Source: a bacterium (GTDB lineage: Bacteria > Joyebacterota > Joyebacteria > Joyebacterales > Joyebacteraceae). From it: a stretch of 64,000 nt of DNA. Under the pieces are notes generated by a model that had not been told where the DNA came from, ran no database searches, and saw only the letters and a list, made by a program, of their open reading frames with translations. The DNA lies in NCBI GenBank assembly GCA_025774935.1, contig JALGZK010000010.1:3640-67639 (forward strand). The letters are read 5' to 3'. A program made the position numbers and the translations under genes. Each line of letters opens with the position of its first letter. The stretch's first letter is position 1. Shown piece by piece: positions 662-39,524 of this stretch.

Positions 662-1195
662 TCGAGTCTCTCCTTGATGAGCGCGCCCGACTGCGCTTCT
701 CGCGACCCGTCCGTGAGAGGGCCCCCGAAGCCGCCGCCCGACGGCCGCGGACCTCCTGGAGCCCCGGACCGGGAAGCCCGGCGGGGCCCGCCGTGTTGTG
801 TTTCTGGCGAATTGGAGCGAGTTTAGCGGGCGGGGACCCCGGAGTCAAGGACGCGGCGGGTGAACGAGGGGCGGGAGGGTCGGGAGGGCGCGCTGGTGCG
901 CGCCGGAGTGGCCCGCAGGGGCCCGCAGGGCGTCTCGCCCCGCCTCCCCGACACGAGATCCCGGCATCCGCCCCCGGAAGTCCGGGGACCGAGCCGGGCG
1001 GGGCCTCTGGCCCGAGGCGCTGGTACGCTCCTTGCAAAACGATAATGCTTGCGGTCGGCGCGGGGAGGGGGTACAGTTAAGTGAAAGTTTACAGAATGGC
1101 CAGCGATTCCACAGAACCTGGGGTGACATCGAGTGCTTCCTATTGCGAATACTGGAGCGCCCTCGCAAGCGCGAGAGCTTGTCGGGAGCAGCGGA

Positions 1196-2212
1196 GTGGA
1201 TAGGGTCGTCAAACTCGGGCTGATAGGGGCCGGCGCCTGGGGGAAGAACCTCCTCCGGACCTTCGCGACCGCTGAGCGCGGCAGGCTCCTCGCATGCTGC
1301 GACTCCAACTGCGGCTTCCTCGAGACGCAGCTCAAGGGCTATGACGGCATCGAGGCGATGGAAGACCCTGAGGGCATCTTCTCCTCCCGTGAGATCGAGG
1401 CGGTCGTCATCGCGACGCCGGCCGTGTCCCACTTCGAGCTCGCCCGCCGCGCGCTCCTCTCGGGCAAGGACGTCTTCGTCGAGAAGCCGATGACGCTCTC
1501 GCTCGACGACGCGAAGGAGCTGGTGGCGCTGGCGGAGGCCGAGAAGCGCATCATCATGGTCGGTCACCTGCTCGTATACCACCCCGGCGTCGTCATGATG
1601 AAGGACCTCCTCGACCGGGGCGAGCTGGGCGATCCGTACTACCTCTACTCCGAGCGCGTCAACCTCGGCAAGATCCGCGAGGACGAGAACGCACTCTGGA
1701 GTTTCGCACCCCACGACATTTCGATTATCCTCTACCTCTTGGACGAGGAGCCGCTCGAGGTCGCCGCGTACGGCGCGGCGTACATCCGGGAGAAGATCGA
1801 GGACGTCGCGTTCCTCTGGATGCGGTTCGCGGGCAACAGGATGGCCCAGGTACACGTCTCCTGGCTCGACCCCCACAAGATCCGCCGCACGACGCTCGTC
1901 GGGAGCAAGAAGATGGTCGTCTTCGACGACATGGCGCCGTCGGAGAAGATCCGGATCTACGACAAGGGAGTCGAGCCGAACGGGCGAACCGTCGGCTACG
2001 CGGAGTCGTTCACGTTGAGGTTCGGCGAGGTGACGGTGCCGGCCCTCAAGATGAGCGAGCCGCTCAGACTGGAGTGCGACCACTTCATCGAGTGCGTGCT
2101 GACCCGCGAGAACCCTCGGTCCGACGGACACGACGGGCTCAGGGTGGTGAAGGTGCTCGACGCCGCCCAGAAGTCCCTCGAGTCGGGCGGCACCCCCGTA
2201 GCGCTGCGCTAG
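1196..2212 (+). CDS. Gfo/Idh/MocA family NAD-dependent sugar oxidoreductase (WbpB-like UDP-sugar 3-dehydrogenase)
   Basis: ORF 1133..2212; N-terminal Rossmann motif KLGLIGAGAWG and the EKPMTLSLDDAKEL motif of the Gfo/Idh/MocA family. Start placed at GTG 1196 (GGGAG upstream); ATG 1133 is the alternative. Confidence 0.8.
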   Translation: MDRVVKLGLIGAGAWGKNLLRTFATAERGRLLACCDSNCGFLETQLKGYDGIEAMEDPEGIFSSREIEAVVIATPAVSHFELARRALLSGKDVFVEKPMTLSLDDAKELVALAEAEKRIIMVGHLLVYHPGVVMMKDLLDRGELGDPYYLYSERVNLGKIREDENALWSFAPHDISIILYLLDEEPLEVAAYGAAYIREKIEDVAFLWMRFAGNRMAQVHVSWLDPHKIRRTTLVGSKKMVVFDDMAPSEKIRIYDKGVEPNGRTVGYAESFTLRFGEVTVPALKMSEPLRLECDHFIECVLTRENPRSDGHDGLRVVKVLDAAQKSLESGGTPVALR

Positions 2213-2283
2213 CTTCCACGACGAACGACTTGCACGAGACGCGCGGGGCCGCGAGGCCCCGCGAACGGAAAGGACGACCTTCG

Positions 2284-3039
2284 ATGGAGAGGTACATCGA
2301 CCCCACGGCGACCGTAGGTGACGGGACGAGCCTGGGCTACTTCACGGTGGTCGGCGCCGACGCGCGGATCGGAGAGGGCTGCACGATCGGGCACAACGTC
2401 GTGATCCACGCGGGGACGGTGATCGGGAAGAACGTCCGGATCGACGACAACTCGGTCGTCGGGAAACTCCCGATGAAGGCCGCGCTCTCCGCGACGACCG
2501 ACGGGTCGGAGGTGGCGGGCGCGCTCATCGGCGACGGCTGTCTCATCGGCGCGTGCGTCGTCGTCTACGCGGGCTGCGTTCTCGGCGACAGGGTCCTCGT
2601 GGCCGACCTCGCGTCGGTCCGCGAGAACGTCACGATCGGCGAGTTCACGATCGTGGGGAGGGGCGTGACGGTCGAGAACCACTGCACCATCGGGCGGCGC
2701 GTGAAGCTCGAGAGCGAAGCCTACATCACCGCGTACTCGACGGTCGGCGACCGCGTCTTCGTGGCGCCGGGCGTCCTCACCTCGAACGACAACTTCATCG
2801 GGCGCACGGAGGAGCGATTCAAGCACTTCAAGGGGGTCACGGTCGAGAAGGGCGGCAGGCTCGGCGTCGGGGCGGTCATCCTGCCCGGCAAGACGGTCGG
2901 GGCGGACGCCGTCGTGGCTGCGGGGTCGGTCCTCACGTCGGACGCCCCCGCCCGGAAGATCGTCGTGGGCTCCCCGGCCAGACCGCTCAGGGACGTGCCC
3001 GACGAGCAGCTTCTCGAGAACCAGGGCTGGGACGACTAG
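2284..3039 (+). CDS. Left-handed beta-helix (hexapeptide-repeat) sugar N-acetyltransferase (WbpD-like)
   Basis: ORF 2074..3039; repeated hexapeptide units (IGEGCTIGHNVVIHAGTVIGKNVRIDDNSVVG...). Start at internal ATG 2284 (MERYIDPTATVGD) preceded by AAAGGA; the upstream 70 codons are Arg-rich and judged spurious. Confidence 0.8.
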   Translation: MERYIDPTATVGDGTSLGYFTVVGADARIGEGCTIGHNVVIHAGTVIGKNVRIDDNSVVGKLPMKAALSATTDGSEVAGALIGDGCLIGACVVVYAGCVLGDRVLVADLASVRENVTIGEFTIVGRGVTVENHCTIGRRVKLESEAYITAYSTVGDRVFVAPGVLTSNDNFIGRTEERFKHFKGVTVEKGGRLGVGAVILPGKTVGADAVVAAGSVLTSDAPARKIVVGSPARPLRDVPDEQLLENQGWDD

Positions 3040-3097
3040 AGCGCGGGACGGGGCCCAGGGGTCCGGGTCGCGCGAGCACACGTCCGCAAGAAGCGAA

Positions 3098-3132
3098 GGA
3101 GCAGGGGCGCGCCGCCCCTGCTCCTCTGTTTT
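3098..3132. terminator. Bidirectional intrinsic terminator between the convergent acetyltransferase and PEP-CTERM genes
   Basis: Perfect 12-bp stem GGAGCAGGGGCG / CGCCCCTGCTCC with a 3-nt loop, followed by TCTGTTTT on the plus strand and by TTCGCTTCTT on the minus strand. Confidence 0.7.
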
Positions 3133-3153
3133 CCACCGGATCCTGCCCCGTCT

Positions 3154-3933
3154 CTACTTCCTGCGCCTCCTCACCACGCCGACCATGCCGACGATGCCGC
3201 TCCCCAGGAGGATGAGCGTTCCGGGCTCCGGAACGACTCCAGCGCCGTCGATGCCATCGAACGTGCCGTTGAGACTGACGAGGTCGTTGCGGCACCCGAG
3301 CGTCCACTCGAGGCCAATCCCCTCGCCGATCCCGGGGTTCATGAGCAGGCTCTTCGAGATCGTCACTTCGAACACGTACGTTCCGAAGCCGTTCTCCATG
3401 AGGCCGTAGTCGTAGTAGTCGACAGTGGCCGTGCCGAGATCGACGCCGCCCGCGAAGTTCGACGGCCCGGTCTCAGCCACGAAGTGCGTGTTCGCCTGGA
3501 ACCAGTCGGTCTCTTCCGTATCGGCCACCTGTCCGGTCCCACCGTCGATGTCGACACCGAGGTCGTAGGTTCCCCCCCCCAGATCGATGGCCAGGTCACC
3601 CGGGACTACCTGCTCCCCGAGGAACTGGACTCCGTCGGGAATCGGCAGGGACGTCACGACCGCGATGTAGGCGTTGGTTGCGTCGTCATCGAAGTACATA
3701 GCCTCGATGTCGAACTGCTCACCGCCGTACGGACGTCTGCCCAGGTGTGTGCTCCAGTTGTCGTCGGCGAAGTACTCGGCCGTCTCCGATGTCGGCGTCC
3801 AGTCGTGGGTGAAGTCGCCGAATCTGTCGACGGCCAGCTCCACTCCGAACCAATCGGAGAGGAGCGCCGCCCCGGCGGGAACCGCCGAGAGCAGCAAGAG
3901 CACGCCGACGCCGAGGATCAGAAGTCGTCTCAT
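3154..3933 (-). CDS. PEP-CTERM sorting-domain protein (putative exosortase substrate)
   Basis: ORF 3154..4032; start at internal ATG (MRRLLILGVGVLLLLSAVPAGAA signal peptide) with AGGAGG about 7 nt upstream. C-terminus VPEPGTLILLGSGIVGMVGVVRRRRK is VPEP + hydrophobic helix + Arg/Lys tail; Gly/Asp/Thr-rich body. Confidence 0.85.
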   Translation of the reverse strand: MRRLLILGVGVLLLLSAVPAGAALLSDWFGVELAVDRFGDFTHDWTPTSETAEYFADDNWSTHLGRRPYGGEQFDIEAMYFDDDATNAYIAVVTSLPIPDGVQFLGEQVVPGDLAIDLGGGTYDLGVDIDGGTGQVADTEETDWFQANTHFVAETGPSNFAGGVDLGTATVDYYDYGLMENGFGTYVFEVTISKSLLMNPGIGEGIGLEWTLGCRNDLVSLNGTFDGIDGAGVVPEPGTLILLGSGIVGMVGVVRRRRK

Positions 3934-4332
3934 GGCATGCCTCCTGTGAGGAAGGACAATGGAATCATGATCATGAACGCAAAGAACACCAACGCCGCTA
4001 CTGCCACTGCTATGCCCGCTCTCATGCGTCACCTCTGGTTGCCAGCTCTTGGTGTCGGTGCACGAGGTGTTTTCCTTGACAACTTCAATAGTATCACAAG
4101 TAGCCAGCCCTTGACAAGTGCTTTTGTTGGTGCATTTGTCATTTGATGGCTAACTTGTTATCTCATGGTCTTTTACGGGGTCGTTCGGTCGTGAGGGGCT
4201 CAAGGGGCGGGGCTGGGAACCCTCAGCGGGCGGCCCCTGGGGCCCCATTCACGGTCCCCCCGGGCCCCTAACGACGTCGCCCGCGGCCGGAGGGGCGGCC
4301 GCGGGCGGGTAGCGTAGGGGTGGCTGTGCCGG

Positions 4333-6357
4333 CTACCTCAGCACCGTGATCTTCCTGGTTGCGACGGCCTCGGGCGTACGGAGCTCCGCGAGGTAGACCC
4401 CGGCGGACACCCGGTGCCCCGACTCGTCACATGCGTCCCAGGCGACCGTGTGATCGCCCGGCTGCAGGCGTCCGTAGGCCAGCTCGCGGACGACCCGCCC
4501 CGAGGTCGCGAGGATCCTGATCGCCACCCGGTCTACGCCCCCCGGCAGCGAGAACGCGAGGGTGGCCGGTCCCGGCGCCGGATTCGGGTAAGCGCTCAGG
4601 GCGAGCGTCGGCGCCGTGGCGCTCGCCATGACGATCTCCATGCTGTCGGACGGCCCGCTCTCGTTCCCGGCCGCGTCCGCGGCGGTGACCCAGTACCTGT
4701 AGGAGTACCCCTCCTCGACGCTCTCGTCGAGGAAGCTGGGTCCCGAAACCGGAGGGTCGGTGAGACAGACCGTCCGGCAAGGCGTGTCGTCCTGGGCCCG
4801 TGAACTCCTGTAGACGTAGTACCCGACCAGATCGTCCTCCTGGTTCGGCTCCCACGTGATCCGGATCCCGTTCCCCTCCTCCCACGCCAGAAGGCCCGAG
4901 GGAGCGGACGGCGGGACCAGATCGGGCCCCAGAAGCGTTACGAACTCCTGGTCCCCACCGATGTTGAGACCTCCCACCCGGTCCCAGGCGAGGACCCGGT
5001 AGTGGTACGTCGTCCCGGGCATCAGGTCCACGAGGTCCGCGCCGAACACGCAGTCGCCGGCACCGGCAGGAACGCCCGTCCGTGAAGAGCCGTACGTGGT
5101 GGTGAGCCCGTACTCGATCCAGGTCGTGCAGGGACGAGACGTGACCCAGTTCAGCCGCGCAGTCTCCTCTCCGACGGCACCGACGCCCGCTCGGATGATC
5201 CCGGGGGGATGCGTGTACGTCATCTGTCCCGTCGGAGCGATCGTCCTGAACGCGCCGACGTCTCCGCAGGTGGTGTCGCTCCCGCAGGCCGACAGGGTCA
5301 TGAACGAGTACTCCGCGTACGGGGCGACTGGCGCCACCACGACCGCGTGGTTCGTGACGAGCGTCGTGTCGATATCGGTCGAGCAGTCGAGCACCCCACC
5401 CGTGCCGTACCGGACGAGCGACGACGCCGCGCGGTCGGTGCTCCACGTGATGAGAACCGACGTTGCCGAGAGCTCTTCCACGTCGACCCCCCACATCATC
5501 GGCGGTCCGGTCGGACCCAGCTCGAGCGTCTCGAACGTCGCGTCCACGGAGCCCGCCTGCGAACCGTACGCGTCCTCAGACAGGACGCGGAAGTGGTAGA
5601 GCTCACCGTCCACGAGCCCGCTCAACGTGACCGAGTGCTCCGACACGAGCTCCTCGTCGACGGGCGTCTCCAGGCCGTACGCGCTCGTCAGGCCGTAGAG
5701 CACCTGGGAGGTGGCGGGGCGGGACGTCCGCCATGCGACCGCGGCCGTCGTCGGCGTGATGTCGGTCACCTGGACGTCAGTGATCTCGAGGGGCGCGAGC
5801 AACGTCTGGAACTCGTGGTCGCCGGACTGCGCGCTCCCGCCCTCCGCGTCCTCGGAGACGACGCGGAAGTGGTAAACGCTGCCGGACGTGAGGCCGGTCA
5901 GCTCGACGGCGTGGTCGGTCACGAGAGGCGTCCCGTGGGGAGACCAGAGCCCGTAGGACTCGGTGGGCCCGTACTCGACGCGGGAGTCGGCGGGGTGGTT
6001 CGTCTGCCACGTGACGAGGACCGAGGTCCCCGTGATCTCGGAGACCGCGACGTCGTGGATCACGAGCGAGCCGTCGAGGGTGAAGCAGATGGAGAGATCG
6101 CCGGGCGGGTAACCGGAGTCGTCGACCACGAAGCTCATGATCCCGGACTCGTCAGAGACGACCGGGCTCCCGTTGAACTCGTCGCCGTCGACCGTCACCT
6201 CGAACCCTGAGGAGGGCGCGACGCCGATCACGATCTGCGCGAGTTCCGCCCTGGAGCCGGGCTCCGCCTGGGCGGCTCCGGCCAGGAGCCCCCAGACGAG
6301 AAGGGCCGTGACCGCCGCACATGTGCCGGTCTTTTCCGCAGTAGCAGTTAGCGTCAT
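4333..6357 (-). CDS. Secreted multi-FN3-repeat protein with T9SS-type (Por/FlgD-Ig-like) C-terminal sorting domain
   Basis: 674 aa; N-terminal signal peptide ending AQA; repeated ~90-aa units containing WxT...R(V/L)xYG...Y(H/Y)FRV(L/V)SxD (purple-acid-phosphatase-N/FN3-like); last ~85 aa LSAYPNPAPGPATLAFSLP...VAIRILATSGRVVREL...GDHTVAWDACDESGHRVSAGVYLAEL...RKITVLR resembles the Por secretion tail (TIGR04183-like). Confidence 0.8.
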   Translation of the reverse strand: MTLTATAEKTGTCAAVTALLVWGLLAGAAQAEPGSRAELAQIVIGVAPSSGFEVTVDGDEFNGSPVVSDESGIMSFVVDDSGYPPGDLSICFTLDGSLVIHDVAVSEITGTSVLVTWQTNHPADSRVEYGPTESYGLWSPHGTPLVTDHAVELTGLTSGSVYHFRVVSEDAEGGSAQSGDHEFQTLLAPLEITDVQVTDITPTTAAVAWRTSRPATSQVLYGLTSAYGLETPVDEELVSEHSVTLSGLVDGELYHFRVLSEDAYGSQAGSVDATFETLELGPTGPPMMWGVDVEELSATSVLITWSTDRAASSLVRYGTGGVLDCSTDIDTTLVTNHAVVVAPVAPYAEYSFMTLSACGSDTTCGDVGAFRTIAPTGQMTYTHPPGIIRAGVGAVGEETARLNWVTSRPCTTWIEYGLTTTYGSSRTGVPAGAGDCVFGADLVDLMPGTTYHYRVLAWDRVGGLNIGGDQEFVTLLGPDLVPPSAPSGLLAWEEGNGIRITWEPNQEDDLVGYYVYRSSRAQDDTPCRTVCLTDPPVSGPSFLDESVEEGYSYRYWVTAADAAGNESGPSDSMEIVMASATAPTLALSAYPNPAPGPATLAFSLPGGVDRVAIRILATSGRVVRELAYGRLQPGDHTVAWDACDESGHRVSAGVYLAELRTPEAVATRKITVLR

Positions 6358-6751
6358 CCGATTGGGTCCCCGCCGCCGTTGGGAGTTTCACCTTCACGTC
6401 GAGATCCGCGGGGCCGGAGGCGGGTGCATAGGGGGTTGCCTGTTCGGTGGAAAACCCGGGGGCCGGCTTCGTGGGGGGGTACGTTACCGGCCCGGCGCGA
6501 CCGAGGCTTCTCGAGTGCCTCACGGTCCCCGCAGGATCTCGGCGAATCCGTAATCGCTCCTCATGTTGCACGGGATTCGCTCCCACACACCCACGACAGA
6601 TTGCACAATCTATGCCAGTTAGGAAGTAACAATGCAGGCAGGGTACCGAAAAGGGCAGGGAATGAGTGCTCCGAGGGGGCCTTGCGGGCTCGCCGGCCGA
6701 GAGGGCCGGCCCTCTCATTAATAGAGGAGCCTCGCCTGGGCACGCGCGGGG

Positions 6752-6787
6752 GCAAAGAGCGAGGGGCCCACAGCGTTCGGGCCCCTC
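6752..6787 (-). terminator. Putative intrinsic terminator downstream of the FN3 lipoprotein gene
   Basis: 9-bp stem GAGGGGCCC / GGGCCCCTC with a 9-nt loop; on the minus strand it is followed by GCTCTTTGCC, about 70 nt after the stop codon of the 6860..8473 gene. Confidence 0.45.
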
Positions 6788-6859
6788 GAATTCCTCATTC
6801 CGCCTGTCGCCTCCCCCGCTACCCGGGGGAGCTTCGTCCCGCGTGTCGGCGGCGTACCT

Positions 6860-8473
6860 CTACGGCGCCGCCGGGCGCGGCGAGCCCGAGACGGTGTTCG
6901 AGACCGCCGTCCCTCCGAACGAGTCGACGACAGCAACCTCGTACCAGTAGACGAACGAATCGACCAGGCTCTCGTGCGTGAAGAAGGTCTCCGTCCGGTC
7001 GGTCAGGCGTGCGATCACACGCTTGGTGCCCAGGTCCGGCGGGTTCGGGGGATCCTGGTCCCAGCAGAAGAGCTCGTACGCGAGGAAGTCGTCGTCCGTG
7101 TTCACCGACCATGAGAGCTCGAGGCTCGCCGAGTCAGGCGCCCACGGCTCCGCGAGCTCCACCGGCGTGGGGAGCTCGTTCTCCATCGTCGTCCCGACGA
7201 CCTCGTTGCTGATGGCCGAGAGGCCGATGTCGTCGAAGACGTAGACCGCGTAGTAGTACGTCGAGTCGGGCTCGAGACCGGTGTCCGTGAAATCGGTCAG
7301 CGTCTGGTTCGTGATGTCCGCGATGAGCTCGCGCTCGGACGACGTGTCGACCCCCGGGATGTACGACCGGTAGAGCCTGTAGCTGTCGAAGTCGCTGTCG
7401 TTGTTCCTCGTCCACGACAGCCCGATCCGCCGCTCGGAGATCGGCACAGGCGGGTTCAGGGTCACGGACGTCGGCGGGTCGAGGATCGTGACGAGTGTCT
7501 GCGCCACGACCGGCTCCGCCTGGTTTCCGACGTCGTCCGTGAAGAAGCCGCTGACCGTTCCGTCGAGAATCTCCACTCCGATCTCGATGACGTAGTCGCG
7601 CTCGTAGACTCCGTCGTTCGGAACCGTGTCCCCTCCTACGCCGTCGTCGTAGAGGGCGATGGCAATCACGACGTTCCCGATGTCGACCTCCGCCTGACCG
7701 TACAGCTCCTGCGCGTCGAGCGTGAAGTGGATCGTCTCCCCCGCGACCATGGACGCGCCCTGAGTGTCTTCCGTCACCGACTCGATCACGGCCCGGGTGT
7801 CGAGGATGATGCCGTCGCTCGCGATCGTGGAGTCGTTGTCCTCGCCGTCGCGGAATCGGGCGTAGACGTTCTTCACCCCGTCGCCTCCCTCAAGCTCCCA
7901 CGCGGACGTCGTGCGGAACGGCTGCCACTGGGCGCCGACGAGATTCTCGTTGTTCGAGAGCTGCATCAGCTGCGTGCCGGCGGCGGCGGACATCGTGAGC
8001 GTTACGTTTCGGCTGGGCGTCTTCATCTGGCCGTTGTCGATCGTCACGCCGTAGATCGCGGGCGTCGCCGTGATGGTCGACGACAGCAGGCCCTCGAGCC
8101 CGTGCGTGTTCACGGCCGAGACCGCGTATGCGTACTCCGTGCCGTTCCTCACTTCTTCGTCCGCGTAGTACGAGGTCGTCGCCGTGTTCAGGAGCTCGAG
8201 GTCCTCGGTCTCGTCCTCGATCACCTCCCACCGGTACACCATGTACTCCTCGATGTCGGTCGTGTCGCTCATCGACCAGTTCAGAGCGACGACGCGGTCC
8301 GCGATGATCGCGCCGAGATTCGAGGGCTTCCCCGGCTCCTCGGAGCCCGTGTTCGGGTTCTCGGGGTCGGCCGAGTTGTCGCGCGTTGGCGACGTGAGTT
8401 CGCCGCCGCAGCCGGCGAGGCCCACGACGAGGATGAGGGCCAGTCCGGCAGTAAGGAACCCGTGTAGTTTCAT
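6860..8473 (-). CDS. FN3-repeat lipoprotein (cell-surface protein)
   Basis: 537 aa; lipoprotein signal MKLHGFLTAGLALILVVGLAGC (lipobox LAGC); several FN3-like segments (YxYRWE, YRLYRS, YxYAV motifs); GGAGGTGA Shine-Dalgarno upstream. Confidence 0.8.
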   Translation of the reverse strand: MKLHGFLTAGLALILVVGLAGCGGELTSPTRDNSADPENPNTGSEEPGKPSNLGAIIADRVVALNWSMSDTTDIEEYMVYRWEVIEDETEDLELLNTATTSYYADEEVRNGTEYAYAVSAVNTHGLEGLLSSTITATPAIYGVTIDNGQMKTPSRNVTLTMSAAAGTQLMQLSNNENLVGAQWQPFRTTSAWELEGGDGVKNVYARFRDGEDNDSTIASDGIILDTRAVIESVTEDTQGASMVAGETIHFTLDAQELYGQAEVDIGNVVIAIALYDDGVGGDTVPNDGVYERDYVIEIGVEILDGTVSGFFTDDVGNQAEPVVAQTLVTILDPPTSVTLNPPVPISERRIGLSWTRNNDSDFDSYRLYRSYIPGVDTSSERELIADITNQTLTDFTDTGLEPDSTYYYAVYVFDDIGLSAISNEVVGTTMENELPTPVELAEPWAPDSASLELSWSVNTDDDFLAYELFCWDQDPPNPPDLGTKRVIARLTDRTETFFTHESLVDSFVYWYEVAVVDSFGGTAVSNTVSGSPRPAAP

Positions 8474-8518: not shown

Positions 8519-9283
8519 CTAGAACTTGATGGCGAACCCGACCGTTGATCCGTCCGGCGTGAGTGCGGCGTAGAACCCGGACGGCTCAGCGCCGAGCTGG
8601 CTCACCGTGGGAGCCTCGCTGGTCGGCGGCGAGATCATGAAGGCGTCGACCACGTTGATCGCCCAGATTCCGATGGCCGCATACATCCAGACGTCGCGCT
8701 TCTGCTGCCAGTCCTCGGCGTCGCTGTATGTCGATTCCACCTCTTCCCACGCGAGCTCGATCTCCTCGATCTGGGTCGCGTCCAGGTAGTCGTCGTACGC
8801 CTCTTCGTACGTGTCCTTCGCGTCCACGTAGTTCGACTGCGTCCAGACGAGCCCGCCGAGCGCCACCGCCTCCGCGATGAAGAAGAAGGCTCCCTTCGCT
8901 GCCTGGTCGGCGTAGACCTGTCCCCATCCAGGGATGATGACCGAGCGGAATCCGGCCCCGGACGCGGTCTTCCGCGTGAGACGGATCTCGATCTCCTCCA
9001 CCGTGGTCGCCGACAGCACAGTGACCCCCGTCCACTCCTCGTACCCGGTCATGCGTGCTCGGATCTCGTACGTCCCGGAGAGACCGCGCTCGAGCCGCCA
9101 GGGAGTCACGCCCCGAAGGGCATGGTCTCCGAGGAGCTCGACCACGGCTCCCGAGGGAACCGAGGTGATGACTACGCCTCCCCCGGTCGCGTTCGCGGCC
9201 GGCTGCGCCGTGGAGTCCCCGACGAGGGGAAGCGCGAGCAGGAGGATCGCGAGGACTGGGAGACCCAGTGGTCTGAGAGACAT
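8519..9283 (-). CDS. PEGA-domain protein with DUF5683-like C-terminal region
   Basis: ORF 8519..9502; start at internal ATG (MSLRPLGLPVLAILLLALPLVG signal peptide) with AAGGAG about 6 nt upstream; PEGA-like VVITSVPSGAVVELLGDHALRGVTPW...GTYEIRARMTGYEEW, then IIPGWGQVYADQAAKGAFFF. Confidence 0.7.
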   Translation of the reverse strand: MSLRPLGLPVLAILLLALPLVGDSTAQPAANATGGGVVITSVPSGAVVELLGDHALRGVTPWRLERGLSGTYEIRARMTGYEEWTGVTVLSATTVEEIEIRLTRKTASGAGFRSVIIPGWGQVYADQAAKGAFFFIAEAVALGGLVWTQSNYVDAKDTYEEAYDDYLDATQIEEIELAWEEVESTYSDAEDWQQKRDVWMYAAIGIWAINVVDAFMISPPTSEAPTVSQLGAEPSGFYAALTPDGSTVGFAIKF

Positions 9284-9371: not shown

Positions 9372-10853
9372 TCACCCTTCGGTGCTGTCAAGGTCACCCG
9401 GACCGCGAGCGGCGCGCGGGCGGCTGTCGCTCGGGTCGAATCCCTCGGAACGCCCCGCTTCCCGCGGTTTTCTTCTTGCGAGTGACTTGAATCCTGTGAC
9501 ATCGATTTCGTATTTTCGAATGAGATCGTAGACGGTCGACCGGCTCACGCCGATCGAACGGGCCGCACGAGAGACGTTGCCGGCGGCCCGCCTGAGCGCG
9601 TCGACGACGATCTCGTGTTCCAGTGCGTCCTTCGCTTCACCGAGTGTCTGCGCGCGCCGTTCAGTCTCGGAGTCGAGCCCGAGGTCGGCCGCCGTGAGCC
9701 TGTGACCGGATGACATGACGACCGCGCGCTTGACCCGGTTCTCCAGCTCGGGGATGTTCCCGGGCCACTCGTGCGCCATCATCGCCCGCACCGCCGACCG
9801 GGTGAACCCCGACAACCTCCGCCCGTGCTCGGAGGCGCAGCGCTCGAGGAGGTCCTCCGCGAGAAGGGCGATGTCCTCGCCCCGCTCTCTGAGCGGGGGC
9901 AGCGTGACCGTCACCACGCTCAACTGATAGTAGAGGTCCTCCCGGAACCCGCCTTCCGCGACGACCTCTTCCAGATCGTCATCGGCGGCAGCTATGATCC
10001 TGACGTCCGCCTTGATCGGATCGTGCGGGCCTTTCCGCTCGATCTCTCCCGACTGAAGGAACGCGGAGAGCCGAGCCTGAAGATGCTGCGACAGCTCGTC
10101 GACTCCTACGACGAACAGCGTCCCGCCGTCGGCCTGTTCGATTCGGCCCGGCATCTTCTCCGCGCCGTTGAACGTCCCGTTCCCGTTGCCGTTTCCGAAG
10201 ACCTCGGCCTCGAGGTACTCGGACGGCGTCGCGCGCAGGTCGACAGCGACGAAGGGCCCTCGCGAGCGGCGACTCAGGTGGTGGATTCCTCGGGCGATGA
10301 GCTCCCTTCCGGTTCCTCGTTCGCCCACGAGAAGCACGCCGACTTCGGTCGCGGCGACCTTCCTGGCGGAGGAGAACACGTCCTGCATGGCCTCACAGGT
10401 CCCCGCCAGGCTGTCGAGGCGCTCGACGCCCGAGAGACGGTCCGGAACGGCGTCCGCGGCCGCCTCCAGCTCCTGGATCCTGAGCGCGCGCTTCACGAGG
10501 ACCCCGAACTCGTCGATGTCGAAGGGCTTCACGCAACAGTCGCACGCTCCGAGCTCGATGGCGCGGACGGCGAGGTCGCGGTCCCCGCTCGGGGCGACCA
10601 CGATGATCTTGAGCCTGAGCCTGGCCTTCCGCGCCAGCCGGAGGAGCTCGAGCTCCTCGCCGGAGCCCTCTTCGCCGCGCTCCAGCGTGCCGTCGAGCGT
10701 CATCACGTCCGGGCGGAACCGGCGGACGGCCTCGATGGCACCGGCGATCGTGTCGGAGGCGCACACGTCGTAGTCGCGCGCGAGACCTTCCCGGAGCAGC
10801 CTCCGGGTGACCTCGTCGCCTTCCACGATCAGGACTCTCTTGCGCTCGGACAC
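9372..10853 (-). CDS. prsR: Sigma-54-dependent response regulator (NtrC/AtoC family; PrsR-like PEP-CTERM-box regulator)
   Basis: 493 aa, GTG start with GGAGG upstream; receiver domain (VLIVEGDE...DVMTLDG), AAA+ sigma-54 interaction domain (LLVGERGTGRELIARGIH, GAFxGA-like FNGAEKMPG, EWPGNIPELEN), C-terminal Fis-type HTH (GNVSRAARSIGVSRSTVYDLIRK). Confidence 0.85.
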   Translation of the reverse strand: MSERKRVLIVEGDEVTRRLLREGLARDYDVCASDTIAGAIEAVRRFRPDVMTLDGTLERGEEGSGEELELLRLARKARLRLKIIVVAPSGDRDLAVRAIELGACDCCVKPFDIDEFGVLVKRALRIQELEAAADAVPDRLSGVERLDSLAGTCEAMQDVFSSARKVAATEVGVLLVGERGTGRELIARGIHHLSRRSRGPFVAVDLRATPSEYLEAEVFGNGNGNGTFNGAEKMPGRIEQADGGTLFVVGVDELSQHLQARLSAFLQSGEIERKGPHDPIKADVRIIAAADDDLEEVVAEGGFREDLYYQLSVVTVTLPPLRERGEDIALLAEDLLERCASEHGRRLSGFTRSAVRAMMAHEWPGNIPELENRVKRAVVMSSGHRLTAADLGLDSETERRAQTLGEAKDALEHEIVVDALRRAAGNVSRAARSIGVSRSTVYDLIRKYEIDVTGFKSLARRKPREAGRSEGFDPSDSRPRAARGPGDLDSTEG

Positions 10854-10956
10854 GATCCTCGGTTCCTCCAGCTACGGACCGGGCGTCGGGCGGGTCTTCC
10901 GCCCCGCGGCGCCCACACGACCCCTCCGGCTTCCCTGCGGTGCCCTGCCGGTGCTC

Positions 10957-12486
10957 CTACTCGGGCAGGGCCTCCAGCTGCCGGGCCGCCTCTTCCGCCC
11001 ACGGCTCTCCGGCGTACGTGCTCGCGATGTCCTCGAGCACCTCGCGCGCACTGGCGAAGTCCTCGAGCTGCCTCGTGTACAGATCGGCGGCCTGCAGCTT
11101 CATGATCGGCGCGTCCTCCGAGTCGGGCAGAAGCTCCGACGTCTCTAGGAGGATCCGCGCCGCCGCCTCCCACTTCTCCTGTCGGATCCGCGCGTCGACG
11201 AGGTACCCGCGGGCGGCAATCTCGGCCGACGTCCCGGCGTACTCCCTGATCACGCGCGTGTACTGCTCCACGGCCCGCTCGAGCGTGCTGGCCCCGACCT
11301 CCTCGTCACCGCTCTGGACGTACCGGTCGGACACGTGGATGAGTGCGCGGAGGCCGTACAGCGTGGTCGGGTACTCGCGCGCGAGAACGCTGTACTGCGC
11401 CGCCGCGCGATCCCAGTTCCCGGTCGCCTCGAAGCTCATCGCCAGGTACTGCATCGCCGTGGCGCTCACGACCTGCTCGGTCGTAAACTCGTCGATGACT
11501 CGTGAGAGGCGCCGCCGCGCGTCGTCGTGGCGCCCCGCGGCGAGGTCCTGTCTCGCGAGCGAGACGGCCGCCGTCGCGCCCGACACGTCGTCCCCGTACT
11601 CGCTCTCGACCCTCTCGTAGTACTCGCGCGCGAGACCGTTGCGCCCGAGTCTCGTCTCGTAGATCTCGGCCAGTCCGAGCCAGAGGGGCGCGCGGTTCTC
11701 GGGCGTTCCGAAGTCGCGGTCGAGCTCCTCGTACACCCTGGCCGCTTCCTCCCAGCGGTCCTCGAGCCCGTAGCTCTCCGCCGTGAGCGACGTCGCGAGC
11801 TCCGCGGTGGGCGATTCCGGCCACTCCGCGATCCAACGGGCGTAGTACTCCCTGGCACGGTCGGACCACGCCGCCGCCTCGGCCGCATCTCCCCGAGCGC
11901 GGTAGACCGCCGCGACCGACAGGGGCGCGCGGAGGATCCGCGTGTCGGGACTCGACTCCGGGTCGCGGGCGGGCTGCCAGTCCTCAATGAGCCCCGCGTA
12001 GACCGCCACGGCCTCGGGCCACCTGTCCTCGCGCCGCTCGACGGCGCCGAGCGCGAGCGTCGCATCGATCGCAAGGCCCCTCTCGAGCGCGTAGCTGTCT
12101 CGCACGGACGAGTAGAGGCGCCGCGCCTCGTCGAAGTCCCCGCGGTCCATCGCGAGCTGCCCGAGCGCGAGCCTGCTGTGCCCGGAGATGCGGGCGATCT
12201 GCCTGGCGACCTCGGAGACGCCCTCCGAATCCCCCTCGGGTGGCGGGAACGCCCGCGTGATGTTCCGGTACTCGTCCTCGACGCGGGCGCGCATCTCGTC
12301 GGTGTTCATACCGGGGTTGACGCTCACCGCGCGCATGAGGCTGCTCGCGCGCCAGGCCATTCTCTCGGCCTCGTACCTGTCCCTGATCTCCCTCGATGAT
12401 TCGCATCCGACGCACACGGCCACGACCACGATCAGGAGGACCGCCGCGAGCCGCCTTGCTGCGCGAGTGTCTCTCAGTGTCATCAT
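10957..12486 (-). CDS. TPR-repeat lipoprotein (PrsT-like)
   Basis: ORF 10957..13209; start at ATGATG 12481-12486 (MMTLRDTRAARRLAAVLLIVVVAVCVGC, lipobox) with GGAGGG upstream; TPR-like helical repeats throughout. The longer N-terminal extension in the track is Arg-rich and rejected. Confidence 0.75.
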   Translation of the reverse strand: MMTLRDTRAARRLAAVLLIVVVAVCVGCESSREIRDRYEAERMAWRASSLMRAVSVNPGMNTDEMRARVEDEYRNITRAFPPPEGDSEGVSEVARQIARISGHSRLALGQLAMDRGDFDEARRLYSSVRDSYALERGLAIDATLALGAVERREDRWPEAVAVYAGLIEDWQPARDPESSPDTRILRAPLSVAAVYRARGDAAEAAAWSDRAREYYARWIAEWPESPTAELATSLTAESYGLEDRWEEAARVYEELDRDFGTPENRAPLWLGLAEIYETRLGRNGLAREYYERVESEYGDDVSGATAAVSLARQDLAAGRHDDARRRLSRVIDEFTTEQVVSATAMQYLAMSFEATGNWDRAAAQYSVLAREYPTTLYGLRALIHVSDRYVQSGDEEVGASTLERAVEQYTRVIREYAGTSAEIAARGYLVDARIRQEKWEAAARILLETSELLPDSEDAPIMKLQAADLYTRQLEDFASAREVLEDIASTYAGEPWAEEAARQLEALPE

Positions 12487-13367
12487 GGCCGTCCCTCCCC
12501 TCCGGCGCCGGGAACGGCTGCGCCCGGCGCTTCGTCCTGCGTCAGGTGGAGGAAGAGCCGCGTGATGCCGCCGAGCGTCACGTAGGTCGCGAAGAAGAGG
12601 ACGACGACCCAGATCACCATGAGGAGCGGCACGAGCACCGGGGAGAACGTGTGCGCGATCGTGGCGCTCTGCCTCCACAGCCAGAGCGGCAGGATCTCGA
12701 GCGCGGCCGGCATGGCCACGAGCAGGAACGTGGCGACCGGGGTCCTCCCGAAGAGCACCAGGCTGCCTCCGACCGCCGCGCGCACGCTCCTTCCCGCGAG
12801 CACGATGTAGGGTGCCGTGTAGACGAGGACGGCCTGGACGAAGAGGACGACGAGGATCGTCGATCCCCTCACCACCCGGAACGTCCTCGGGCTCTCCTCC
12901 GCGAGATACCCGAAGAACGCGTAGGACGTCCTCGTCACGATCTGAGCGAGACCGACGGCGATCACCGCCGCGACCACGAGCGACCAGTACCTCGACGACG
13001 CCCGGCTCCACGCCTCCCCGAACCCCACCCGCCTCCGCTGATAGAAGGTGCCGAAGAGCACGATCCCCGTCGCCGCGGTCACCGCTCCCAGGAAGACGGC
13101 CAGGAACGGGTCGAGCTCGCCCAGCCCGGCCCTGAGCACGAGGAAGTTGTTCGGGTAGTGCAGCACGGACTCCCCGAACCGCCACCTCAGGAGCGGCACC
13201 ATGAACCACGAGACGACCGGGTACGCGAACCCGCCGATCGCGGCCAGGATCGCGGCCTGCCCCGCGGCGTAGATGGCGAACGGGAGGAGCGCCACGCGCC
13301 GCGAAAACGCCCTGAACGTCTCCACCCAGCCCCAGATGAGAGCATTGATCTGATCGATGAGGCCCAT
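12483..13367 (-). CDS. Uncharacterised polytopic membrane protein embedded in the exosortase operon
   Basis: 294 aa with about 7-8 hydrophobic helices; stop TGA overlaps the TPR-lipoprotein ATG (ATGA); no recognisable family motif. Confidence 0.65.
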   Translation of the reverse strand: MGLIDQINALIWGWVETFRAFSRRVALLPFAIYAAGQAAILAAIGGFAYPVVSWFMVPLLRWRFGESVLHYPNNFLVLRAGLGELDPFLAVFLGAVTAATGIVLFGTFYQRRRVGFGEAWSRASSRYWSLVVAAVIAVGLAQIVTRTSYAFFGYLAEESPRTFRVVRGSTILVVLFVQAVLVYTAPYIVLAGRSVRAAVGGSLVLFGRTPVATFLLVAMPAALEILPLWLWRQSATIAHTFSPVLVPLLMVIWVVVLFFATYVTLGGITRLFLHLTQDEAPGAAVPGAGGEGRP

Positions 13368-13463: not shown

Positions 13464-14108
13464 TCAGCCCTCCCCGGCGAACACGAAGAGCTCCGGAAGG
13501 CGCACGAGCGCGGCCTCCGAGAAGTCCTTCAGCACCTCCATGGCGCCGTCGAAGTCACCGTCCCTCACGACGGTCGACACTCTAACGAACGCTCCGTAGG
13601 TCACGTTCGACACGATCCCCGACGCTGCCATCCGCGTCATGAACTTGTCGCGGTCGGCCGTCGCCAGATCCCCCGCCGTGTACCACCAGTAGACCGCGAG
13701 CCGGCGGACGCCCTGCTGCTCGACGAGCACCCAGTTGGCGTCGAAGCCGCCGTCTTTCCTCCAGAGGGGCTCGAGCCCCGAGTCGACGTCCGTCCATCCC
13801 TGGGACCGGTAGCATACGAGCGGCTCGTGCGCGCCGTACCGGTCGTTCTGATGGAAGATGATGACGAACCATATCCAGTCGCCCACGTCGTTCGTGTACC
13901 GCCGCGCCAGCGTGTCCGTCGCCTCGAGTTCCTCGTAGACGACGTCTTCGAACGACAGATCGACGCTGCGCCATCCTCCGAGCTGCGCCGGGAACGCTCC
14001 GAGCGAGCCCGCCTCGAGCTCCATCCTGTCGGGCGGGTTCAGGTGCACGTAGAAGGCGCCCGCCCCGAGGAGCGCGACCACGACGATCGTTCCGAATGAG
14101 GTCCTCAC
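13464..14108 (-). CDS. epsI: EpsI-family exosortase-associated protein
   Basis: 214 aa; N-terminal membrane anchor (IVVVALLGAGAFYV) then periplasmic domain; immediately downstream of exosortase with ATGA start/stop overlap at 14105-14108. Confidence 0.7.
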   Translation of the reverse strand: MRTSFGTIVVVALLGAGAFYVHLNPPDRMELEAGSLGAFPAQLGGWRSVDLSFEDVVYEELEATDTLARRYTNDVGDWIWFVIIFHQNDRYGAHEPLVCYRSQGWTDVDSGLEPLWRKDGGFDANWVLVEQQGVRRLAVYWWYTAGDLATADRDKFMTRMAASGIVSNVTYGAFVRVSTVVRDGDFDGAMEVLKDFSEAALVRLPELFVFAGEG

Positions 14109-15043
14109 GCGCCCCTCCCCTCAGGGGCGGTCTCTTCCCCCTCGCACGTCTCACATCTCAGGAGCTTCCGCACCACCACGAGTCCGACGAACGCGAACAT
14201 GAACAGCAGGAACCCTGAGAAGTCGTGGAAGAACCCGAGCGCGGCGTCGATGCCCCAGACGTGGGCGACGAGACAGAGCGCGGTGATCCTGAGCATGTTC
14301 CCGGCGATCGCGAGCGGCACGCTGACCGCGACGATGACGAGCCGCTTCCACGCGGCGCCCGCCGTCAGATACGCGAAGAGCGTTCCGAGGGCCACGAGCG
14401 CGATGAGCGACCTGAGCCCGCTGCAGGGGTCCGCGATCCGAAGCGACCCGGCCGGGACGTGGATCGTCATGCCCGAGCGGACGAGTGGCACGCCGAGCTT
14501 CGCGGCGAGTGCACTCCCTGAGCGCGCCGCGAAGACCTTGAGGTTGAAACTCAGCACGTTCATGAGGAACGGCGGCCACGGCAGCATGAACACGAGGAAC
14601 GCGAGCGGGAACCAGATCACCCTCGTCGCCCGACCCCCGAAGAAGAAGAGCGACAGGCCGAAGAGCATGAGGACGAACGAGTAGCCCTGCGTCATGAAGA
14701 TGCCCGCACGGATCGACACCACGTTCCCTACGAGCGCGAGAGCGATGATCGCGATGCCCCAAGCCGTCCCCGCCCTCACCGCATCCACGAACCTCTTCCG
14801 CTCGCGCCACAGGAGGAAGAGGACGATCGGCGGGATCAGGAACCCGTGCGAGTAGTTCGGCGAGGACATCCAGGTCCGCCAGAGCGTCGGGAAGACCGGG
14901 TAGTACACGATCGCAACGAGGACGGCCGCCACCGCGAAGCGCGCGAGCTGCCGCGCGGCGAGCGTCCCCCGAGGGGTCGCGCCCCCGCTACCGGTCGCGT
15001 TCCGGAGCTCCGCCCCGTCTCGTCTGTCGTTCCCGGTCGTCAA
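14105..15043 (-). CDS. xrtA: Exosortase (XrtA/EpsH family)
   Basis: ORF 14105..15388; polytopic membrane protein with exosortase-like motifs (ADPCSGLRSL, GNMLRITALCLV). Start assigned to TTG 15041-15043 with GGAGG about 5 nt upstream, overlapping the upstream TGA (TTGA); the Arg-rich 115 codons before it are rejected. Confidence 0.8.
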   Translation of the reverse strand: MTTGNDRRDGAELRNATGSGGATPRGTLAARQLARFAVAAVLVAIVYYPVFPTLWRTWMSSPNYSHGFLIPPIVLFLLWRERKRFVDAVRAGTAWGIAIIALALVGNVVSIRAGIFMTQGYSFVLMLFGLSLFFFGGRATRVIWFPLAFLVFMLPWPPFLMNVLSFNLKVFAARSGSALAAKLGVPLVRSGMTIHVPAGSLRIADPCSGLRSLIALVALGTLFAYLTAGAAWKRLVIVAVSVPLAIAGNMLRITALCLVAHVWGIDAALGFFHDFSGFLLFMFAFVGLVVVRKLLRCETCEGEETAPEGRGA

Positions 15044-29957: not shown

Positions 29958-30011
29958 GCGCTCCTCTCCGGACGCGGTCCCGCGGCTCTGCGCCGCGCGG
30001 CCCGGCGCCCG

Positions 30012-34657: not shown

Positions 34658-35695
34658 CTACGGTGTCGTTGTGGTTGTCTGCTGCTGCTGCGCCGTCGCG
34701 ATCGCCGCGTTCCTGAACCTGCGGTCGTCGATCTCCCGCTCGATGCTGAGGTAGAGGAGGTAGGCGGTGAGCACCTGGGTCGTCGCGGTGAGAAGCGCGC
34801 CCGCGGCGTTCCAGAACTGGCCGCCGAACGTGTCCTGCGTCGATCCGATGACCACCCTGTCTCCCGCCCTCAGGAAGAACGGCTTCGGCGTGCCGCGTGT
34901 GAGCACGCTCTTGAGGTCCACCTTCGCGACGGCGTGCCCCTCGCCCGCGTCCATCACCACCGAGACCTCGTCCAGTCGCGCGTCGACCGTCGTGCCTCCC
35001 GCGATCGCGATGAGCTGGAAGAGGTCGATCCTGTCCGACGTCGCGTACGCCCCGGGCGTGTTCACCTCGCCGAAGATGTAGACCATGCCCGGGCCCGCGA
35101 GGCCTCCCCCGCCAATGATCGACGGGATCTCGATCGTGTCGCCGGGCATGAGCGCGGGGAGCGGCTGCGCCGTCTCGCCTCTCATGTACGCGCCGAGATC
35201 GACGTTGATGAGCTCGGGTCCGCCGATCGAGGGTCTCAGGATCGAGACGTTGGAGAGGTCGGCGCTCGGGAGCGCCCCTCCGGCGGAACTGAGGAGCTGC
35301 AGGATGTCGGGGATGGCCTCGAAGCTGTAGCGCCCGGGCGCGGTGACCTGTCCGGTCAGATAGACGGCTCTGCTGTTGAACTGCTCGACCGACACCGTTA
35401 CCTGGGTGGTCTCCCTCGTGTAGTCTCTCAGGCGCTGGACGATCTCCCTCGAAAGCTCGGACGGAGTGAGTCCGGCCGCCGTGAGCTCGCCGATCGGGGG
35501 GAGCGTGATCGTCCCGTTCGATTTGACGGTGACGTCCTGGTTCAGGTCGGAGTGACGCCAGACCGCGACCCTGAGCACATCGCCCGGGCCGATGACGTAC
35601 TCGATTCCCTGCTGCTGCGCCGGCGCCTCGACCGCAACGAGCGGCAGGATCATGGTAACGAGCAGGATCGATGACACGAGCTTTCTGCTGGACAT
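34658..35695 (-). CDS. Polysaccharide export protein (Wza/EpsE-like, Poly_export + SLBB domains)
   Basis: ORF 34658..35845; start at internal ATG (MSSRKLVSSILLVTMILPLVAVEAPAQ signal peptide); motif YVIGPGDVLRVAVW typical of Wza-like proteins; C-terminal helix AGALLTATTQVLTAYLLYL. Confidence 0.85.
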   Translation of the reverse strand: MSSRKLVSSILLVTMILPLVAVEAPAQQQGIEYVIGPGDVLRVAVWRHSDLNQDVTVKSNGTITLPPIGELTAAGLTPSELSREIVQRLRDYTRETTQVTVSVEQFNSRAVYLTGQVTAPGRYSFEAIPDILQLLSSAGGALPSADLSNVSILRPSIGGPELINVDLGAYMRGETAQPLPALMPGDTIEIPSIIGGGGLAGPGMVYIFGEVNTPGAYATSDRIDLFQLIAIAGGTTVDARLDEVSVVMDAGEGHAVAKVDLKSVLTRGTPKPFFLRAGDRVVIGSTQDTFGGQFWNAAGALLTATTQVLTAYLLYLSIEREIDDRRFRNAAIATAQQQQTTTTTP

Positions 35696-39429: not shown

Positions 39430-39524
39430 CGTTCACTCCGGTGTGCCGGCGGGCGTCGCCGGCCTGAGCTGGATCGGGGCCCCCGCCACCCACGTCGGTG
39501 AGGGCGCGTCGACCCCTCCGCCGC

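Follow-up and report, generated by a model that had tools for sequence, protein, structure and literature searches.

We describe here a locus in a 64-kb stretch of bacterial DNA (referred to as the window; G+C content, ~68%) in which two adjacent genes encode proteins with two different C-terminal sorting tags. One is a 259-amino-acid (aa) protein that ends in a PEP-CTERM signal, and the other is a 674-aa protein with fibronectin type III (FN3) repeats that ends in a C-terminal domain (CTD) of the kind recognized by a secretion system of type IX (T9SS). The window contains exactly one protein of each sort, and the two lie side by side on the minus strand, which holds almost all of the window genes. 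We consider it reasonably probable that the locus is the distal end of a conserved Eisenbacteria exosortase/exopolysaccharide (EPS) cluster and that the two proteins, as predicted Sec-exported components of the surface or matrix, are sorted by two routes. Homologues of both proteins include several that carry the NCBI name Candidatus Eisenbacteria, a group regarded as the nearest relatives of Joyebacterota, which is a phylum within the Fibrobacterota-Chlorobiota-Bacteroidota (FCB) superphylum. Linked PEP-CTERM and T9SS cargo genes within an exosortase locus were not described in any of the papers that we searched. The proteins themselves are new members of known tag families; it is the design of the locus, with a sigma-54 promoter and a leader ahead of the CTD gene, that is new for exosortase/EPS systems. 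Current views are not overturned by these observations, which instead extend known systems to an uncultured phylum.

The two genes and their parts are as follows.
4333..6357, minus strand: gene for the secreted 674-aa multi-FN3 protein with a C-terminal T9SS-type sorting domain (open reading frame; identical call on public contig JGI 3300041074 Ga0451568_000758; Pfam; orthologues P0002-P0048)
6265..6357, minus strand: predicted Sec signal peptide, residues 1-31 (...LLAGAAQA/EP), from reading of the translation
4336..4608, minus strand: CTD, residues 584-674 (91 aa), a seven-strand Ig-like sandwich (type-A T9SS CTD, FlgD_ig-like subclass)
3154..3933, minus strand: gene for the 259-aa PEP-CTERM protein, from MRRLLILG (open reading frame; identical call on the same public contig)
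3157..3237, minus strand: PEP-CTERM sorting domain, residues 233-259, consisting of VPEP, a hydrophobic helix and RRRRK (hidden Markov model [HMM] stretch, 234-258)

Both genes had been correctly delimited in the original prediction made for this DNA, which also credited the 259-aa protein with a PEP-CTERM signal, and that assignment was borne out. The protein consists of a Sec signal peptide (MRRLLILGVGVLLLLSAVPAGAA, recognized by eye), a passenger domain with a DOMON/CBM9-like beta-sandwich and a tail of the PEP-CTERM type. It ends in ...VVPEPGTLILLGSGIVGMVGVVRRRRK, so that VPEP-GTLILLGSGIVGMVGVV-RRRRK occupies the extreme C-terminus, and it passes both curated models for the signal (TIGR02595, 26.5 versus a cut-off of 16; PF07589, 27.1 versus 20.7). 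The motif is kept in all orthologues, and the tail is conserved among 20 aligned homologues. The family is small (61 proteins in 5.8 billion) and highly conserved, with 56 to 74% identity. A cognate exosortase and EpsI, both above the cut-offs of their models, are encoded on the same strand 10 kb upstream. The C-terminal helix would hold the protein in the inner membrane, the exosortase would cleave at VPEP, and the product would pass to the EPS or the cell surface, where the beta-sandwich domain could possibly bind glycan.

Identity of the C-terminal domain of the 674-aa protein

The 674-aa protein is made up of repeated FN3/Pur_ac_phosph_N domains (83 to 87 bits) and terminates in YPNPA...GVYLAEL...RKITVLR. 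The original prediction had seen a Por/T9SS-type domain in this tail. Several lines of evidence uphold this assignment, the first being the behavior of its relatives. When orthologous CTDs were compared with TIGR04183, 20 of 22 matched at an E value of <= 0.01 (best, 2.3e-11), and the C-termini of PorZ and PorU were matched too; the whole 674-aa protein likewise matched the PorU and PorZ models weakly at their C-terminal ends. Two of the orthologues (P0025 and P0031) are named T9SS type A by NCBI. In all orthologues the domain stands at the extreme C-terminus, begins with YPNP and ends with K-[LI]-T-[VL]-[LIV]-R. In the alignment of the family (A1), G37 is invariant, R38 and V40 are nearly so, and K86 and the hydrophobic end are conserved; the alignment with PorU suggests that these residues are equivalent to the CTD motifs of P. 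gingivalis. A profile built from the family matched 2857 proteins. PF18962 and PF13860 overlap on 95 of the best 120 of these, and the NCBI name "T9SS type A sorting domain" is borne by proteins of this kind from Eisenbacteria, Gemmatimonadetes and WOR-3. Their Pfam partners include carbohydrate-binding modules, cohesin and others, i.e., one tag is found on many unrelated passengers.

Comparison with known structures led to the same assignment. Against all PDB sequences, the family profile aligned with the PorU CTD (6za2) from profile position 2 to 87 over residues 1058 to 1153 of 1156 (E value, 9.3e-10), and it also matched PorZ (5m11; E value, 1.7e-7) and a translocon-bound cargo CTD (8glk_D; E value, 1e-3). 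End-to-end alignment, including the YPNP start and the K-x-T-V-L-R end, was limited to T9SS CTDs. The AlphaFold (AF2) model of the domain has seven strands and a pLDDT of 95.9, and in a Foldseek comparison of this model with the PDB, the best three matches were PorU (two chains) and PorZ; CTDs of cargo proteins (mirolase and NucA; 8qb1 and 8glk_D) are also on the list. T9SS CTDs are described as 3+4 sandwiches with a conserved glycine in the beta3-beta4 region and a C-terminal motif (PMC11285876), and the model fits this sandwich. In all of these respects (a ~90-aa, seven-strand Ig-like sandwich at the extreme C-terminus, a YPNP start, a conserved glycine that is probably the one of the beta3-beta4 region, and a last strand of basic/hydrophobic character), the domain resembles the uncleaved type-A CTDs of PorU (6ZA2) and PorZ (5M11). 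It differs from them in lying under the TIGR04183 and PF18962 cut-offs and above that of FlgD_ig, in its FlgD-type motif and in its host, which belongs to a candidate phylum without a described T9SS and in whose DNA, as far as it was read, no machinery was seen.

These differences, together with some related ones, weigh against the assignment and must be set against the evidence above. The whole 674-aa protein misses both T9SS cut-offs (TIGR04183, 17.0 versus 23; PF18962, 14.9 versus 27), and the 91-aa CTD scanned by itself still falls short of the former (22.7 versus 23). PF13860 (FlgD_ig), in contrast, passes (44.8 versus 27) and is the sole model above cut-off for the CTD, and the domain carries a W-D-G-x-D...G-x-x-V-x-x-G-V-Y motif that is typical of FlgD Ig domains. 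Structures of FlgD are also the top PDB sequence matches (7eh9; E value, 1.8e-10). No T9SS core gene was found among the ~50 window proteins compared with NCBIfam, in which the only T9SS-named matches outside the CTD protein were noise to PorW at the level of tetratricopeptide repeats (TPRs) (20 bits); no T9SS component was found in ~170 kb of related loci either, and no paper in our literature search linked Eisenbacteria with a T9SS or with type IX secretion. From these facts one might suppose that the CTD is a structural FlgD-type Ig domain that serves in adhesion or as a spacer, that the organism has no T9SS, and that the FN3 protein is periplasmic or leaves the cell by some other exit.

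We regard this as unlikely. The similarity to FlgD (PF13860; 7EH9, 3OSV) is confined to the core strands, at profile positions 13 to 78, and the first and last strands of the CTD (YPNP and KxTVLR) have no FlgD counterpart, whereas T9SS CTDs align from end to end; in the fold search, PorU and PorZ come first and FlgD appears at rank 16 or lower. The 674-aa protein has no FlgD N-terminal domain (only the Ig core, at model positions 90 to 150 of 197, is matched, and the rest is FN3 repeats), and there are no flagellar genes in the window. Moreover, a domain that is always extreme C-terminal, with the same start and end, and that terminates thousands of otherwise unrelated proteins behaves as a sorting tag would. 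A FlgD hook-cap domain was therefore rejected as the primary identity of the CTD, since the alignment covers no more than the core and the context does not fit. Based on the orthologue HMMs, the PDB profile, the fold and the family evidence, we place the CTD in a FlgD-Ig-like subclass of type-A CTDs. The original prediction had proposed scans with TIGR02595 and TIGR04183 as a check, with a poor score of the domain against T9SS models counting against it. The first of these models was passed, and the second was not, which formally goes against the T9SS assignment; nevertheless, the domain is a T9SS-type CTD despite the missed cut-offs, which the family HMM, PDB profile and fold evidence override. 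By the same token, for the C-terminal domains annotated as FlgD_ig, of which FCB-related candidate phyla have many, T9SS-type tags are the best reading, a point that matters for the annotation of secretomes from metagenomes.

T9SS biology is known almost wholly from Bacteroidota. T9SSs have been proposed as possibly present in several non-Bacteroidota FCB phyla, and the abundance of the tag in this lineage, as judged by the matches to the CTD profile, lends indirect support to the presence of such a system. We infer that the organism may have one, in which case the CTD would be recognized in the periplasm by the T9SS translocon and the 674-aa protein exported across the outer membrane, there to be released or reanchored by a PorU-like sortase. 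In Flavobacterium johnsoniae, a T9SS occurs together with an exosortase (XrtF) needed for surface colonization (PMC10936215), and the co-occurrence of the two is thus in itself unsurprising. The resemblance lies in the presence of both systems in one organism and in their ties to surface or biofilm phenotypes; the difference lies in the adjacency, within the present exosortase locus, of a canonical PEP-CTERM substrate and a cargo protein with a CTD. As a separate observation, an unrelated 1.14-Mb contig (L021; ENA contig_20984) encodes several FlgD_ig-tailed proteins beside a secretin gene and a cohesin-domain protein; there are no T9SS genes within 10 kb of that cluster.

Conservation of the exosortase locus and of the gene pair

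The genes that separate the exosortase from the CTD gene in the window are listed below, together with the exosortase and EpsI genes.
14105..15043, minus strand: exosortase, XrtA-like (TIGR02602, 200.4 bits versus a cut-off of 105.6)
13464..14108, minus strand: EpsI, exosortase-associated protein (TIGR02914, 89.1 bits versus a cut-off of 42.8)
12483..13367, minus strand: 294-aa polytopic membrane protein (several hydrophobic helices in the translation)
10957..12486, minus strand: 509-aa TPR protein in the slot of PrsT in XrtA systems (TPR matches, called gene)
9372..10853, minus strand: PrsR-like sigma-54-dependent response regulator (TIGR02915, 414 bits, under the equivalog cut-off of 502.6; Sigma54_activat, 163 bits)
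8519..9283, minus strand: PEGA/DUF5683 protein, a conserved cluster member (PF18935, 55.6 bits; PF08308, 27.7 bits; synteny)
6860..8473, minus strand: 537-aa FN3 lipoprotein with lipobox LAGC and a choice-of-anchor-X motif (NF041940, 27.9 versus a cut-off of 25; fn3, 48.8 bits)

The original prediction placed the pair directly downstream of the exosortase EPS operon. It was right as to direction, but the distance is 10 kb, with five genes between EpsI and the gene for the 674-aa protein. Related loci share a gene order in which the exosortase and EpsI are followed by the membrane protein, the TPR protein, (in some) a GAF kinase, the sigma-54 activator, the PEGA/DUF5683 protein, the FN3 lipoprotein, the CTD protein and one or two PEP-CTERM proteins. 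It is kept from the exosortase to the PEP-CTERM gene(s) in four of the four orthologue neighborhoods that were fetched (L002, L004, L005 and L006; 40 to 44% identical), with a 535- to 537-aa orthologue of the FN3 lipoprotein in the equivalent slot of each. The loci found by way of the leader motif described below (L007/L011, L010, L012 to L016, L018 and L020) carry the CTD protein, save L010, L011 and L013, which end before the gene, and a PEP-CTERM gene follows the CTD gene wherever the sequence reaches that far (L007, L015, L016, L018 and L020). In total, the order from exosortase to PEP-CTERM gene recurs in at least 10 related loci of metagenome-assembled genomes, which are Candidatus Eisenbacteria by the NCBI names of the homologues. 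On the evidence of sequence, this synteny supports a functional link, and the pairing of the two tags appears not to be a chance neighborhood.

A different view is that both tags are functional and their adjacency meaningless, the two being independent surface proteins that remain neighbors by virtue of slow rearrangement in one lineage. All of the loci come from one candidate phylum, and the flanking housekeeping genes (M42 peptidase, BtpA, CysS and EF-Tu) are syntenic too, so that part of the conservation of the pairing may be lineage inertia. In addition, each of the two cargo genes has a promoter of its own, and these differ in type (sigma-54 with a long leader versus sigma-70-like), the PEP-CTERM gene has its own terminator, and in L002 three opposite-strand genes stand between the two. 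A more distant paralogue of the CTD protein (P0043; 33% identity), which counts against our preferred reading of the locus, lies in an unrelated context without an exosortase; the linkage is thus a property of the orthologous group and not of CTD-FN3 proteins generally. Against the view that the adjacency is meaningless, CTD proteins across related loci are only 40 to 48% identical and range from ~515 to 965 aa, and yet a protein diverged to this extent still has the FN3 lipoprotein on one side and the PEP-CTERM gene(s) on the other; in addition, the sigma-54 promoter of the CTD gene lies near a sigma-54 activator of the type found in PEP-CTERM systems. On balance we find an explanation by inertia alone rather unlikely. 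Given the syntenic flanks and the differing promoter types, whether the CTD protein and the PEP-CTERM protein are functionally coupled is a question on which we are evenly divided, and attachment of both to the same glycan is a good deal less probable than that. The original prediction had suggested that two anchoring systems may serve the same surface structure; two real tags belonging to different sorting systems, and their recurrent pairing, stood up to scrutiny, whereas a joint role in one EPS-based structure, to which synteny alone points, is conjectural. The conserved locus provides a concrete pair of proteins with which to ask whether two C-terminal transpeptidase systems feed one polysaccharide-based surface layer.

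The exosortase system has an XrtA-like design but is placed in no subtype because the equivalog cut-offs for XrtA, PrsR and the chain-length determinant are missed, a point that also weighs against our preferred reading of the locus. The exosortase scored 196.7 against the XrtA-specific model TIGR03109 (cut-off, 208), and XrtD (197.2) and XrtW (194.8) scored equally. Compared with the XrtA/PEP-CTERM/EpsH-EpsI system with PrsK-PrsR-PrsT (Haft et al. 2006, as cited in PMC7468200), the locus shares an exosortase and a separate EpsI that end a large EPS operon; Wza/Wzc-like export proteins, a priming transferase and family 4 (GT4) glycosyltransferases, including the stp2 equivalog; and a TPR protein and a sigma-54 response regulator followed by a PEP-CTERM protein (VPEP, helix and Arg cluster). 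It is unlike that system in that the XrtA model is just missed, in a tie with XrtD and XrtW; in that PrsR, PrsT and the chain-length determinant fall below their equivalog cut-offs; in the absence of a PrsK-like kinase from the window and from L005; and in the presence in the cluster of a T9SS-type cargo gene, which does not belong to the system as described. The match of the TPR protein to the PrsT model is weak (28.6 bits versus 312). The 294-aa membrane protein, which has no Pfam or NCBIfam match, comes after EpsI in all loci and is an as yet unnamed conserved component of the exosortase system.

The related loci differ from the window in several details. No PrsK-like kinase gene is present in the window; in L002, L004 and L006, a GAF histidine kinase (PrsK-like, ~700 aa) separates the TPR protein from the sigma-54 activator (at 3.4 to 5.7 kb of each locus, compared with 9372-12486 of the window), and it is absent from L005 also, where the activator is without a receiver domain. 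In many related loci the CTD gene is separated from the conserved PEP-CTERM gene by one for a second, unrelated PEP-CTERM family (tail, ...YRGxVLLxAD...PVPEP) (L004, 13053-13874; L005, 12692-13561; L006, 12849-13658; also L015 and L018); this family is absent from the window. The three opposite-strand genes between the cargo genes of L002 (12859-15468, minus strand) encode a FemAB/Acetyltransf_6-like protein, a GNAT protein and an unknown protein.

Promoters and a candidate leader RNA

The control elements around the two cargo genes are the following.
6602..6617, minus strand: sigma-54-type promoter of the CTD gene, TGGCAT-N5-GTGCA (motif search)
6400..6540, minus strand: conserved 5' leader core, 141 nucleotides (nt), with 21-bp closing helix P1, hairpin P2 and hairpin P3 with a C-rich loop (conservation, folding and covariation)
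4088..4117, minus strand: sigma-70-like promoter of the PEP-CTERM gene, TTGTCA, a 16- to 18-nt spacer and TG-extended GATACT/TACTAT (promoter scan)
3097..3125, no strand assigned: GC-rich 13-bp hairpin where the PEP-CTERM gene and the acetyltransferase gene converge (terminator scan)

Upstream of the CTD gene is a 500-nt gap that is conserved far better than the proteins. It contains a sigma-54 promoter (TGGCAY-N5-GTGCA across loci) with CTGTTACTTAC ahead of it, and a promoter of this type occurs at the equivalent position in every orthologous locus for which upstream sequence is available, 169 to 185 nt before an invariant leader block. The 141-nt leader core begins ~60 nt after the promoter and contains two invariant runs (GAAGCCUCGGUC and GGCWACCCCCUAYGCACCCGYCUCCGG). 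The CTD gene would thus be read from the sigma-54 promoter through a 240-nt structured leader, probably under the drive of the PrsR-like regulator encoded at 9372..10853, which is the likely activator of the promoter at 6602-6617.

An exact-pattern scan for the leader block found it in nine stretches of eight GTDB genomes and in five metagenome contigs. These were Eisenbacteria-type loci only, and the block was upstream of the CTD gene in every locus that reached past it; a covariance model of the leader gave one match per locus. Five of the five representative sequences tested fold alike, into P1, a small hairpin and another hairpin whose loop is C-rich (minimum free energy z-scores, -2.4 to -5.7). 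When 11 distinct copies were aligned by sequence only, pairing was seen in 84% of cells, versus 33 to 58% with the partners slid; there are double changes in six pairs, a number reached by 4 of 500 shuffles, and the covariation score is above those of all 500. Realignment with the covariance model raised these figures to 87% of cells and eight double-change pairs (1 of 500 shuffles). Since the sequences are few and related, we regard this covariation as suggestive support for the secondary structure rather than as proof. A fourth helix (AGUAC/GUACU) is kept in L004-type sequences and broken in L002, L005 and L016, and it was left out of the model.

Judged by sequence comparison, the leader is a candidate new cis-regulatory RNA. 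Rfam gave no gathering-score match in the window and, in positions 3000-7200, none at an E value of <= 1 save chance matches on the terminator hairpin; known riboswitch classes were rejected on this basis. A small open reading frame within the leader (ATGCACCCGCCTCCG...) was likewise rejected, as its ATG is ACG in L005, it shows no third-position pattern and the gene caller left it blank. A leader that is riboswitch-like or binds a protein, or one with an RNase III site, would be in keeping with the length of the P1 helix, with the presence of two GCCUC copies that could compete for one GAGGC and with an anti-Shine-Dalgarno-like CCUCC. If real, the leader would add a new regulatory element that is specific to this lineage and linked to sigma-54 and to matrix genes.

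The PEP-CTERM gene appears to be controlled differently. We sought a sigma-54 promoter upstream of it and found none; instead there is a sigma-70-like promoter (two sites in the promoter scan versus 0.2 expected), and the block cTTGTCAAG...TGrTAsTAT is kept upstream of the orthologous genes in L002, L004, L005 and L006. The hairpin at 3097-3125 is probably a bidirectional terminator. With its own conserved promoter and terminator hairpin, the PEP-CTERM gene would form a transcription unit separate from that of the CTD gene. One bolder, albeit speculative, scenario is that in Eisenbacteria an FN3 protein exported by a T9SS was brought into the exosortase/EPS locus as a fixed partner for the PEP-CTERM protein, two transpeptidase-type sorting systems together building one glycan-anchored surface layer, with expression of the T9SS cargo from the sigma-54 promoter gated by the hitherto undescribed leader RNA (possibly riboswitch-like or protein-binding and sensing a biofilm signal); as a whole, we doubt that this is correct.

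Possible sugar-modification genes nearby and the EPS operon

Beyond the terminator hairpin lies a pair of genes convergent with the PEP-CTERM gene.
1196..3039, plus strand: Gfo/Idh/MocA sugar 3-dehydrogenase-like gene (1196-2212) and hexapeptide N-acyltransferase gene (2284-3039), both with family models under cut-off

The dehydrogenase-like protein scored 160 bits against the UDP-GlcNAc 3-dehydrogenase model (cut-off, 450), and the acyltransferase scored 95.7 bits against the NeuD/PglB/VioB family (cut-off, 160.8). A near-consensus sigma-54-like motif (TGGTACGCTCCTTGCA; 1021-1036, plus strand) lies upstream of the two genes and is kept in L005 and L006. The two genes may belong to the same regulon as an operon for sugar modification, with a loose resemblance to WbpB/WbpD. 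Identification of the neighboring enzymes as WbpB, WbpD or VimA was rejected, as the similarity is at the family level and far under the equivalog cut-offs.

Such genes bring to mind a third possibility, namely that a PorU-like sortase and the exosortase both attach their cargo to one amino-sugar glycan made by the dehydrogenase and acetyltransferase genes and the EPS operon. To our knowledge, the chemical nature of exosortase products is undefined, and this gap in itself counts against the idea. Its attraction is that a link between the two systems was hinted at by Veith et al. in 2020 through shared FemAB/Vim enzymes: T9SS cargo is joined to an amino sugar of the Wbp/Vim pathway, and VimA, as these workers noted, belongs to the PEP-CTERM-associated FemAB family TIGR03019 (PMC7468200). 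In keeping with this, the dehydrogenase-like and N-acyltransferase genes abut the PEP-CTERM gene and have the conserved sigma-54-like motif, and the FemAB-like gene of L002 stands between the two cargo genes. However, the match of the latter to TIGR03019 is weak (26.7 bits versus 260), and all three enzymes (160 versus 450, 95.7 versus 160.8, and 26.7 versus 260) are thus far under their equivalog cut-offs; no aminotransferase was seen beside the enzyme genes, and no PorU was found in the DNA read. A shared glycan is therefore, in our view, very improbable, and given the low enzyme scores, we treat a chemical link between the two sorting systems as a lead only.

The EPS operon itself runs on the minus strand from ~35.8 kb to 15 kb. 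It encodes a Wza-like export protein, a Wzc-like chain-length/tyrosine kinase protein, several GT4 glycosyltransferases, a deacetylase, a heparinase-like lyase, a fused GT4/priming transferase and large membrane proteins resembling O-antigen ligases or oligosaccharyltransferases. One of the glycosyltransferases passes as the stp2 equivalog of XrtA systems (TIGR03088, 421.7 versus a cut-off of 409), whereas the export protein (123 versus 180) and the chain-length determinant (154 versus 279) are under their equivalog cut-offs. The heparinase II/III-like lyase (within 24579-30011, minus strand) scored 173 bits against the HepB model, under its cut-off, and two large membrane proteins of the same interval gave faint oligosaccharyltransferase- or O-antigen-ligase-like matches. 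A sigma-54-like motif with one mismatch (TGGCACAGGTGATGC; 36056-36070, minus strand) precedes the first gene for EPS export (34661-35854) by ~200 nt; across the whole window such motifs are no more frequent than expected by chance, and for this one it is the position that is suggestive. Finally, a rhomboid-family protease encoded at 38686-39432 (minus strand) has weak similarity to rhombosortases (31.9 versus 84 bits).

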